Shown here: piece after piece, positions 53,899-54,186 of the stretch
Position numbering within the stretch: position 1 is the stretch's first letter
How the letters are laid out: each line of letters starts with the position of its first letter
Source of the DNA: Nannocystis bainbridge
GTDB taxonomy: Bacteria; Myxococcota_A; Polyangia; Nannocystales; Nannocystaceae
Length of the DNA: 64,000 nt
Direction: 5' to 3'
Assembly (NCBI RefSeq): GCF_028368995.1
Contig: NZ_JAQNDL010000002.1
Location: 1,184,001-1,248,000, forward strand
Position numbers and translations under genes: made by a program
Notes under the pieces: generated by a model
Seen by the model: only the letters and a program-made list of their open reading frames with translations
What the model was told of the DNA's origin: nothing
Databases searched by the model: none

Positions 53899-54186
53899 AG
53901 ACAGGGTCCGAGGGACATGTCCATGCGGACATGTTGCTTCGGACATGGACTATGGGCCATGTCGTGAAGGACATGGCTCATACGACATGAGCCAAAGTCC
54001 ATGGCGTGAAGAGAATGGTCTAATAGACATGGGCTTAGAGACATGGCTGTAGAACCATTTTCCATACGACATGCGCTGAGATCCATTGCGTAAAGAACAT
54101 GGCAAAAACGACATGCGCGATAGGACATGTTTGAATAAACATAGCTGATAAGACATGTTTATAGGAACATGTCGAATGGGTCATGT
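53899..54186. repeat. Long AT-rich 14-bp-phased array (21 cores)
   Basis: A core every 14 bp from 53902 to 54182: 16 exact CATG and 5 single-mismatch variants. Units are otherwise divergent. Confidence 0.95.

Follow-up and report, generated by a model that had tools for sequence, protein, structure and literature searches.

The REP/BIME elements of enterobacteria and pseudomonads are short extragenic palindromes that occur in hundreds to thousands of copies, are clustered and lineage-specific, and can form hairpins in transcripts. The met-boxes of MetJ (8 bp), the heptads of the omega protein and the hexamer arrays of Fur are tandem operators for small dimeric repressors, and the Sal-box/TTF-I arrays are repeated, protein-bound terminators of RNA polymerase I, built from an 18-bp non-palindromic motif that works in one direction. 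HIP1 of cyanobacteria, the DUS of Neisseria and the USS of Haemophilus are over-represented words, uptake sequences often lying as inverted pairs behind genes. The STRR heptamers of cyanobacteria and ordinary VNTRs consist of near-identical unit copies, and CRISPR arrays have repeats of ~23–47 bp with spacers of similar length, usually accompanied by cas genes. Canonical terminators are few in high-GC bacteria; how transcription units end in these organisms is poorly understood, and myxobacteria have hardly been studied in this respect.

In the genome of Nannocystis bainbridge (11 Mb, 71.5% GC), a tract between ybjQ and thrC belongs, as its largest member, to a family of arrays built from 14-bp units with dyad symmetry. 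Features are listed in Table 1 by their positions in the window, i.e. the whole 64-kb stretch of DNA that was analysed. The original prediction of 21 CATG cores (16 exact and five with one mismatch) in a single 14-bp register without insertions or deletions was confirmed by laying out the tract as 14-mers. Exact cores stand at 53916, 53930, 53944, 53958, 53972, 53986, 54000 and 54028 in the first half and at 54042, 54070, 54098, 54112, 54126, 54154, 54168 and 54182 in the second, the cores with one mismatch are CAGG at 53902, AATG at 54014, CATT at 54056 and 54084, and CATA at 54140, and one additional CATG, at 53922, is off register. Phasing is far stronger than in shuffled controls: the best register holds 16 CATG, whereas none of 1000 shuffles exceeds 3, and the autocorrelation at lag 14 is 0.515 versus 0.257 when shuffled (z 9.4), with z of 8–10 at lags 28, 42, 56 and 70, and no signal at lags 13 and 15. 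The low GC content that had been reported (42% over 54001–54180) also stands, at 0.41–0.45 in 100-bp windows within 54000–54199, compared with 0.70–0.86 in most flanking windows. With an overall GC of 0.454 versus a family mean of 0.58, the array is one of the family's most AT-rich and is its longest, ranking first in a PWM census with 19 scoring units (the runner-up has 10). Its units retain the GGR-CA half, and the YCC half is degraded, 9 of the 20 units having G and 8 having T at position 5.

Table 1. Features of the window, with strand and basis of recognition
Feature	Position	Strand	Evidence or remark
ybjQ-family gene	53504..53887	+	Pfam PF01906 YbjQ_1, 130 bits, E 4.8e-38
Focal array, 20 units of TGYCC-N4-GGRCA type	53902..54186	.	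21 cores, 14-bp spacing
GC-rich spacer (0.73–0.86), array to thrC start	54187..54429	.	Composition; feature recognised: none
thrC, threonine synthase, downstream of array	54430..55788	+	TIGR00260, 203.3 bits (cut-off 167.1); Pfam PALP
Family member, 4 phased CATG	8114..8159	.	C3:1192114
Further short family member	~8189–8223	.	C3:1192192
Family member, 6 phased CATG	22252..22325	.	C3:1206252
Family member, 5 phased CATG	30100..30159	.	C3:1214100; array at orthologous place in G001
Family member, 4 phased CATG	36968..37013	.	C3:1220968
Family member, 5 phased CATG with one unit skipped	60977..61050	.	C3:1244977; array at orthologous place in G001

The interiors had been described as differing in every unit, and neighbouring 10-nt interiors do agree at a mean of only 3.5 of 10 positions. 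However, they are not fully independent, as units 3, 6 and 9 apart are more similar (4.33 versus 3.43 of 10, permutation p = 0.0009), indicating that part of the length of the array arose by duplication of 42-bp blocks. The view that the tract is not recent slippage of one unit holds, and Tandem Repeats Finder recovers a 2.8-copy fragment and misses the rest. The serial addition of fixed-length TG..CA units, one of the two readings initially offered, was right about the form of the unit, but serial addition of unrelated units is without support; the growth that can be traced is duplication of existing units or of three-unit blocks.

The tract was first seen as a singular element of the ybjQ-thrC interval, which has to be given up: it is the largest of 1,287 arrays in the genome, so the explanation has to hold for the whole genome and to relate to the 3′ ends of genes instead of to thrC. 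The PWM census counts 5,494 units of TGYCC-N4-GGRCA in these arrays, and 3 arrays in a reversed-sequence control. Chains of at least three exact CATG at 14 bp number 801, while any other period from 6 to 30, except 28 (2 x 14), gives at most 51. The geometry is rigid, CATGYCC-Nk-GGRCATG occurring 778 times with k = 4, three times with k = 3 and four times with k = 5, and neighbouring RCATGY words lying 14 bp apart in 2,362 cases, 13 bp in 21 and 15 bp in 26. CATG is the junction between adjoining units in (TGYCC-N4-GGRCA)n. At the array ends CA is kept (C 0.71, A 0.52) and TG is not (T 0.20, G 0.35), indicating that the unit is the 14-bp palindrome TG..CA. Ten of the 14 positions per unit are conserved; YCC and GGR, which played no part in finding the arrays, carry ~0.8 bit each, and the N4 centre carries ~0.06 bit per position at a GC of 0.48 (0.70 in other intergenic DNA). 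The consensus is dyad-symmetric even where transcription is expected on one strand only. Natural arrays range from 3 to 20 units, and 6–7% of neighbour pairs family-wide reach 8 of 10 interior matches.

Like STRR heptamers and VNTRs, the arrays are short-period and intergenic, and vary in copy number by whole units between relatives, but 1,502 of 1,809 unit interiors are distinct and the standard repeat finder barely detects the focal array. The HIP1, DUS and USS words resemble the Nannocystis motif as lineage-specific short words over-represented across the genome, apparently in called genes too; they are, however, single fixed words without phased tandem arrays, whereas the motif described here is a spaced, degenerate palindrome whose copies mostly lie in phase-locked arrays. 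A CRISPR array was rejected, the period being 14 bp with 10 bp conserved and 4 bp variable. Restriction avoidance was rejected as the cause of the preference for non-palindromic junctions, as outside arrays ACATGT is over-represented (1.73) and GCATGC neutral (1.03). Phased arrays with other 4-mer cores and periods of 6–40 were sought in 400 kb of G009 (an array-poor genome of the genus), 200 kb of G024 and 42 kb of G022 (two other genera), and yielded coding-type periods only.

That the focal array serves thrC or ybjQ alone, as an operator or regulatory region, is highly improbable. Its place 244 bp upstream of thrC and its unusual length and AT content would suit such a role, and at the ybjQ locus of relatives the arrays are long too (~10–15 units). 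However, it obeys the rule of its family, the first core standing 14 nt beyond the stop codon of the upstream gene (TGA, 53885–53887), and the genome's other 1,286 arrays follow unrelated genes. The stretch 53700–54500 contains no pattern of a sigma-70-like promoter or of a terminator (stem-loop with T-run), and the G003 array is likewise behind ybjQ. Orthologues of ybjQ are found in six other genomes of the genus, five of which (G001, G003, G005, G007 and G010) have an array after the gene. With like arrays in five other assemblies, and the family as a whole in six, an assembly or sequencing artefact can be given practically no credence.

The repeat family probably marks gene ends. With gene contexts taken from our own simple gene caller (8,020 genes, 83% coding), 607 stricter arrays divide into 375 convergent, 194 tandem, 12 divergent and 26 genic cases, at a median distance of 22–24 nt from the upstream stop as against 217–249 nt to the next start. 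Arrays begin only a few bases past stop codons. Arrays occur in 531 of 1,228 convergent intergenic regions (43%), 422 of 3,385 tandem regions (12–13%) and 50 of 1,437 divergent regions (3.5%), the divergent cases lying in long regions, which may hide small genes. An intrinsic (Rho-independent) terminator is a GC-rich stem-loop with a T-run, and the T-run is missing at the Nannocystis arrays (T of at most 0.16 family-wide in the 28 nt beyond array ends). A role in Rho loading (rut) was rejected, the arrays being as G-rich as C-rich and the sense strand in tandem contexts leaning to G+T.

We tentatively favour the reading that the arrays are abutting sites for a dimeric DNA-binding protein, forming a two-way barrier at gene ends, which we regard as quite possible if short of probable. 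Each unit would be an operator-like site on duplex DNA, read by a putative lineage-specific dimeric protein; a reader of duplex DNA is suggested by the rigid N4 spacing, the dyad symmetry without pair covariation, and the free, AT-rich centre. Neighbouring dimers would abut at ~120 degrees of rotation, three units making four helical turns, and together could coat the array cooperatively. The coated array may then be a two-way transcription barrier, serving as a roadblock terminator or as an insulator that separates convergent units, and would fill the niche of the ordinary 3′ hairpins found elsewhere in the genome. The ybjQ-thrC array would be an over-grown, partly decayed case, enlarged by 42-bp block duplication and drifted to AT. 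Of the two readings originally put forward, the dimeric-protein lattice fits the constraints best, the N4 spacing included; a search for a reader gene adjoining the arrays in 45 divergent cases, in long intergenic regions of commonly 300–800 bp and up to ~6 kb, gave no lead.

The sequence grammar of the arrays is that of the MetJ, omega and Fur operators, which likewise have short abutting dyad units in head-to-tail or alternating order, invariant spacing and variable copy number, and are read cooperatively on duplex DNA. Those operators, however, lie in the promoters of a regulon, whereas the Nannocystis arrays lie behind stop codons at more than 1,000 loci and are scarce in divergent regions. 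The Sal-box/TTF-I arrays are also short-motif arrays downstream of a transcription unit, where they act as a polymerase roadblock. The analogy is functional, roadblocking in Nannocystis being only proposed, and the Sal-box arrays differ in being eukaryotic, confined to one type of locus and one-way in action. Some observations count against a protein lattice: the arrays would fold as RNA too, complementarity between units i-1 and i+1 and a sense-strand G+T excess lean to a single-strand reading, the finding of an array within 150 bp downstream of only 2 of 102 tRNA genes is odd for a general terminator, and the YCC half-site is largely lost in the focal array. Abutting 14-bp sites are also tight for helix-turn-helix dimers.

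The main rival is that the units act as REP/BIME-like hairpins of RNA (or single-stranded DNA) at the 3′ ends of mRNAs, where they would block 3′ exonucleases or terminate transcription both ways, and this we consider possible but doubtful. REP/BIME and the Nannocystis arrays are alike in being made of short palindromes, extragenic, clustered, lineage-specific, in high copy, and at gene 3′ ends or between convergent genes, a niche and a convergent bias that suit hairpins and a protein lattice equally. The predicted RNA structures are hairpins centred on N4, with 7-bp CAUGYCC/GGRCAUG arms and 4-nt loops, and the predicted fold of the focal sense strand has a z of -8.6. Despite their lower GC, convergent regions with an array are as stably folded as those without (-0.540 and -0.525 kcal per nt; -0.464 in divergent regions). 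Arrays and other perfect hairpins tend to be mutually exclusive, a perfect 8-bp hairpin outside arrays being present in 46 of 477 array-bearing convergent regions (10%) versus 181 of 490 array-less ones (37%). Behind tandem genes antisense RNA is less stable than sense RNA, and at positions 5/14 the sense strand retains a small excess of G+T after replication skew is allowed for. Complementarity between units i-1 and i+1 is in small excess (+0.04 to +0.07), and at lag 2 inverted matches with 8 or more of 10 positions in agreement reach 3.9% over a baseline of 1.7%.

Hairpins do not, however, require a loop fixed at four (778 cases versus 7 of three and five together), and pairing alone gives no reason for a conserved CATG word. 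None of the stem pairs inside the units shows base-pair covariation (n = 1,332), and complementarity within units is close to expectation (observed/expected 0.409/0.415, 0.556/0.541 and 0.562/0.574). Common CAUG arms that pair with either neighbour might keep the consensus in place of covariation. The missing T-run and terminator pattern also speak against hairpins, as does the loss of most of the strand asymmetry once replication skew is controlled; a seemingly strong sense-strand G.U signal was set aside as mostly replication GC skew. The consensus of REP/BIME spans the whole 20–40-nt palindrome, whereas the Nannocystis units are 14 bp long, abut in exact phase without variable linkers, and have effectively random centres. 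A search for the Y1 (IS200/IS605-like) RAYT transposase (PF01797) gave 0 matches in the N. bainbridge genome (90% complete), whereas 6 of 14 control genomes yielded matches when searched likewise. An Rfam search of 53000–55000 with E up to 10 returned a single chance-level match (mir-BART7, E 6.4), and no published description of such Nannocystis arrays was found in the main texts of the literature searched, the 'repetitive' or 'repeat' passages of the N. exedens genome announcement dealing with assembly gaps (PMC5658511); the original impression that this is not a described element is thus upheld.

The pattern has 396 hits in N. bainbridge, 138–196 in each of five other large Nannocystis genomes, 1–4 in three and 0 in two, and none in 30 genomes of other genera. 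Among 400 other genomes of the phylum, 6 have 1–4 hits, and in the 4 of these with matches listed they are ordinary perfect tandem repeats. As far as the sampled genomes go, the array family is Nannocystis-specific and restricted to part of the genus. Viral contigs gave 0 matches to a two-unit pattern. Among the public sequencing runs listed, none was of RNA, and five metagenome runs contained 8–9% of the words. In the assemblies compared, arrays persist from species to species at the same gene ends, with the interiors and numbers of the units changing. In 375 kb of synteny with G001, 17 of the 21 arrays that fall in alignment gaps have an array as counterpart at the orthologous position, and 6 of 6 further arrays align with their cores kept. 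Orthologous interiors are no closer than those of random array pairs (0.482 versus 0.444, p = 0.40), and unit counts vary at orthologous places, the gaps seen being one of 14 bp and one of 8+6 bp.

Such turnover, together with the restriction to part of one genus, would fit a repeat without cellular function, either a self-propagating or mutation-driven palindrome akin to highly iterated palindromes or uptake sequences, or a slippage-prone palindromic microsatellite, that accumulates behind stop codons, where it does least harm. A recent local amplification at C3:1085843 (8 near-identical units, against 3 different units in G001) and the unit-sized indels between species point the same way. 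So does the excess of solitary perfect units outside arrays, 1,954 versus 21 genome-wide in the reversed-sequence control (27 versus 0.22 in shuffles within the window), although the null models ignore codon structure and 934–936 of these units lie in called genes; one such genic site is simply conserved coding sequence. We nevertheless think an absence of function unlikely. Plain decay after copying would not conserve YCC and GGR while leaving N4 free, the phase is maintained against indels of +/-1, and arrays are retained across species at the same gene ends. In tandem regions they hug the upstream stop and are not spread over the free space, the interiors are not mutual copies, and no mobilising enzyme is known.

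Returning to the protein lattice, a wider proposal, which we put forward with considerable doubt, is that the arrays represent a previously undescribed bacterial gene-end element: phase-locked lattices coated by a putative lineage-specific dimeric protein would act as sequence-specific, bidirectional roadblocks or insulators behind stop codons, replacing hairpin terminators for about one fifth of the genes in the genus, and the reader and its arrays would have arisen and spread together in Nannocystis. A single grammar, rigid and very simple, is common to some 1,300 loci per genome and arose within one genus, and the question is directly testable given a short motif, natural length variation and array-free sister lineages as controls. 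If true, the protein lattice would be a new way to delimit genes and a compact orthogonal insulator part; an RNA-based system would be a REP-like family that works without RAYT and whose fixed geometry is unexplained.

For annotation, the family accounts for the AT-rich islands behind Nannocystis genes. The arrays are a likely cause of assembly and alignment trouble.

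The tract between ybjQ and thrC (see table) has 16 exact CATG cores, running from 53916 to 54182, and five cores with one mismatch (CAGG at 53902, AATG at 54014, CATT at 54056 and 54084, and CATA at 54140); no indels interrupt the layout, and a single additional CATG lies off register, at 53922. The best register holds 16 CATG, whereas 1000 shuffled versions of the 280 bp reach 3 at most. At lag 14, base identity amounts to 0.515 versus 0.257 in shuffles (z 9.4), with similar values at multiples of 14 and no signal at lags 13 and 15. GC content in 100-bp windows is 0.41-0.45 within 54000-54199, versus 0.70-0.86 in most flanking windows. 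The countable claims of the original prediction (core numbers, 14-bp register, absence of indels and low GC) are thus all correct. Because adjacent 10-nt interiors, i.e. the bases between cores, agree at just 3.5 of 10 positions, Tandem Repeats Finder detects only a 2.8-copy fragment. Similarity is higher between units that lie 3, 6 or 9 positions apart than between other pairs (4.33 versus 3.43 of 10 bases, permutation p = 0.0009), and part of the exceptional length of this array is therefore due to duplication of 42-bp (three-unit) blocks.

Features of the ybjQ-thrC region and examples of solitary units (window positions)
Feature	Position	Description or basis
Focal array	53902-54186	Core every 14 bp, laid out as 14-mers
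YbjQ-family gene	ends 53887 (stop side)	PF01906
Threonine synthase gene (thrC)	starts 54430	TIGR00260, score over cut-off
Solitary unit	50157-50170	
Solitary unit	51906-51919	

The array belongs to a family that is abundant in its own genome (11.05 Mb in 5 contigs, GC 0.71-0.72). Counting exact CATG spaced exactly 14 bp, with skipped units disallowed, gives 328, 213, 159, 75, 22, 2, 1 and 1 chains of 3, 4, 5, 6, 7, 8, 9 and 12 copies, respectively; no other period between 6 and 30, apart from 28 (2 x 14), yields more than 51 chains. The unit consensus is CATG-YCC-NNNN-GGR, that is, abutting palindromes TGYCC-N4-GGRCA, with an information content of ~0.5-0.9 bit at each of Y, C, C, G, G and R and of ~0.06 bit at each of the four central positions. 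Interiors are distinct in 1,502 of 1,809 units. The last core of an array keeps its CA (C 0.71, A 0.52) and not its TG (T 0.20, G 0.35), and therefore the repeating entity is the 14-bp palindrome, in keeping with the TG..CA unit originally proposed. A weight-matrix census with a threshold of at least 3 units identified 1,287 arrays comprising 5,494 units, as against 3 arrays in the reversed, uncomplemented genome. Arrays of 3 to 9 units number 465, 321, 287, 154, 45, 8 and 2, with five more of at least 10 units. The steep drop beyond 6 units suggests a soft size ceiling near 84-98 bp, against which the 20-unit focal array is a marked outlier; with 19 scoring units it is the longest by far, the runner-up having 10.

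Family arrays are AT-rich islands, with a mean GC of 0.58 (sd 0.067) compared with 0.70 for other intergenic DNA, and a GC of 0.48 in the N4 centres. The focal array (GC 0.454, N4 GC 0.26) lies near the 5th percentile of the family. At least five further members with at least 4 phased cores occur in the 64-kb window (12 pattern matches versus 0.00 in shuffles). Long arrays are concentrated on C3, the contig of the window, which makes up 18% of the genome and carries 26 of the 60 arrays of at least 7 units (p = 5.5e-6); it is also enriched in arrays of all sizes (304 of 1,287). The GC skew of C3 switches from + to - near 1.5 Mb, as at a terminus, ~260 kb from the focal array.

Perfect TGYCC-N4-GGRCA units also occur alone: 1,954 lie outside arrays genome-wide versus 21 in a reversed-sequence control that ignores codon structure, and the window holds 27 versus 0.22 in shuffles that likewise ignore it. 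Between 934 and 936 of the 1,954 are inside called genes, spread along their length. One solitary unit, in hflX, simply encodes K-D-V-P-E-D-S and is identical in the related genome G001. Gene ends can evidently bear units without a phased array; behind the thrC stop, the convergent region 56063-56115 has two solitary units 39 bp apart, off the 14-bp phase.

All figures on gene context depend on gene calls made here from a codon-usage score (8,020 genes, 83% coding density), which look sensible in the window. On these calls, the 607 arrays with at least 4 CATG comprise 375 in convergent, 194 in tandem and 12 in divergent regions, plus 26 inside called genes, against a background of 1,112 convergent, 3,083 tandem and 1,391 divergent intergenic regions of at least 60 bp. 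Weight-matrix arrays are carried by 43% of convergent regions of at least 40 bp (531 of 1,228), 12-13% of tandem regions (422 of 3,385) and 3.5% of divergent regions (50 of 1,437), the odds ratio of convergent to divergent being 21. Tandem-region arrays lie a median of 22-24 nt from the upstream stop and 217-249 nt from the next start, and convergent-region arrays ~23 nt from each of both stops. The focal array obeys this rule, beginning 14 nt past the ybjQ stop and ending 244 nt short of thrC. Most commonly, 0-6 nt separate the stop codon from the first core, and in 39 cases the core itself supplies the stop (CA-TGA). The regions of 45 divergent arrays are long, commonly 300-800 bp and up to ~6 kb, and may hide small genes. 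Among 102 tRNA genes, only 2 are followed by an array within 150 bp (p = 2.5e-4 versus the tandem rate). Two arrays, C3:1343764-1343851 and C3:1247982-1248041 (the latter starting at window position 63982 and continuing past the window end), lie within long high-scoring ORFs, and one of them shows gaps of 6, 3 and 3 bases relative to G001, as in coding DNA; either ORF-borne arrays are translated, or the gene calls fuse two genes.

The niche of the arrays is that of 3' hairpins. At equal GC, convergent regions lacking an array are more structured than divergent regions (-0.525 versus -0.464 kcal per nt), and a perfect 8-bp hairpin is present in 181 of 490 array-less convergent regions. Convergent regions with an array fold equally well (-0.540 kcal per nt) despite their lower GC, yet a hairpin of this kind lies outside the array in only 46 of 477 (odds ratio 5.5); the corresponding tandem figures are 350 of 2,080 array-less versus 20 of 275 array-bearing regions. 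Arrays thus appear to substitute for ordinary hairpins behind genes. They are not followed by a T-run, and the focal region shows neither a canonical terminator nor a sigma-70-like promoter pattern. The arrays therefore probably have a gene-end function acting in both directions. That they are instead a functionless, self-driven palindrome is unlikely.

As for what such a function would be based on, rigid spacing, dyad symmetry and a free centre read as the grammar of putative abutting operator sites for a dimeric binder of duplex DNA. CATGYCC-Nk-GGRCATG has 778 occurrences at k = 4, three at k = 3 and four at k = 5, and adjacent RCATGY are 14 bp apart in 2,362 cases, 13 bp in 21 and 15 bp in 26. 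Because the interiors have diverged to randomness, this phase purity implies that +/-1 indels are removed. Dimer half-sites, or a lattice, would demand fixed spacing, whereas hairpin loops would not. REP-like RNA hairpins would, on the other hand, fit the predicted RNA folds, in which CAUGYCC/GGRCAUG arms form hairpins around a central N4, and the folding of the focal array (sense -126 kcal/mol, z -8.6; antisense -101 kcal/mol, z -5.3), as well as a complementarity between units i-1 and i+1 slightly over expectation (+0.04 to +0.07) and inverted lag-2 matches of 3.9% versus a 1.7% baseline. However, stem pairs within units are no more complementary than base frequencies predict (observed/expected 0.409/0.415, 0.556/0.541 and 0.562/0.574, n = 1,332), the base pair across the core is anti-complementary (0.305 versus 0.413 expected), and dyad symmetry of the consensus is just as strong in tandem contexts, where transcription of only one strand is expected. 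On balance we tentatively favour a lattice of protein on duplex DNA, with RNA hairpins somewhat less likely, as the basis of the gene-end function.

The anti-complementarity across the core reflects avoidance of 6-bp palindromes, ACATGC and GCATGT being preferred over ACATGT and GCATGC. Restriction avoidance does not explain this preference, since ACATGT is 1.73-fold over-represented outside arrays. The genome has a strong replication GC skew (~+/-0.08), with an origin-like switch from - to + near C1:4.45 Mb, and a weak gene strand bias (~50%); this skew shifts Y/R choices within units. A strong sense-strand G+T bias was rejected as a signal, being mostly replication skew; the skew-controlled residue is small, mainly at positions 5/14 (0.625, 0.479 versus replication-predicted ~0.55, 0.45).

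The arrays resemble REP/BIME elements in niche, copy number and palindromy, but the latter have a full-length consensus, variable linkers and a RAYT gene. No RAYT gene (PF01797) was found in this genome by a search that matches 6 of 14 control genomes. In grammar the arrays are like MetJ, omega and Fur-type operator arrays, which however sit in promoters, and in proposed logic like Pol I Sal-box/TTF-I terminator arrays, which are eukaryotic and one-directional. Lineage-specific over-representation is shared with HIP1-type palindromes and uptake sequences. No Rfam family was matched, and the two-unit pattern had 0 matches in viral contigs. No published description of such arrays was found in the literature searched, including part of the N. 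exedens genome note (PMC5658511).

A five-core pattern has 396 matches in the window's own genome and 138-196 in each of five related Nannocystis genomes (G001, G003, G005, G007 and G010). Of five further Nannocystis genomes, three have 1-4 matches and two have 0; most of these five assemblies are fragmented, although the array-poor G009 has 9.1 Mb in 40 contigs. There are 0 matches in 30 genomes from other genera of the family and class, and 0 for the control pattern read backwards. In a further phylum sample of 400 genomes, 6 have 1-4 matches, and the matches listed for four of these are ordinary perfect tandem repeats. A search for analogous phased arrays with other cores (any 4-mer, periods 6-40, units less than 80% alike) found none in 400 kb of G009, or in 200 kb of G024 and 42 kb of G022 from other genera; in positive controls it recovered 32 and 50 loci per Mb.

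Orthologous arrays were compared over one 375-kb syntenic stretch with one partner, G001, where identity is 90-93% for genes and 0.827 for four-fold sites. Of 21 arrays in alignment gaps, 17 are matched by an array at the orthologous position, with interiors no closer than in random array pairs (0.482 versus 0.444, p = 0.40). Six of six further arrays are alignable (71-79% identity), retaining cores while interiors are altered; the gaps include one of exactly 14 bp and one of 8+6 bp. As intergenic DNA is generally unalignable between these species, interior divergence reflects freedom of the interior, not necessarily hypermutation. Overall, the arrays are old and retained in place, with cores and phase constrained, and interiors and unit number free. 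The array at C3:1085843, with 8 near-identical units versus 3 dissimilar ones in its G001 counterpart, is a recent local amplification. Behind ybjQ, an array of ~10-15 units with differing unit sequences is found in 5 of 6 related genomes, and is absent in a more distant metagenome-assembled member. In two of these relatives (locus L002 of G001 and L006 of G007) the array resumes after a one-base phase slip; strict phase thus need not extend over a whole array, and the working units may be sub-arrays.
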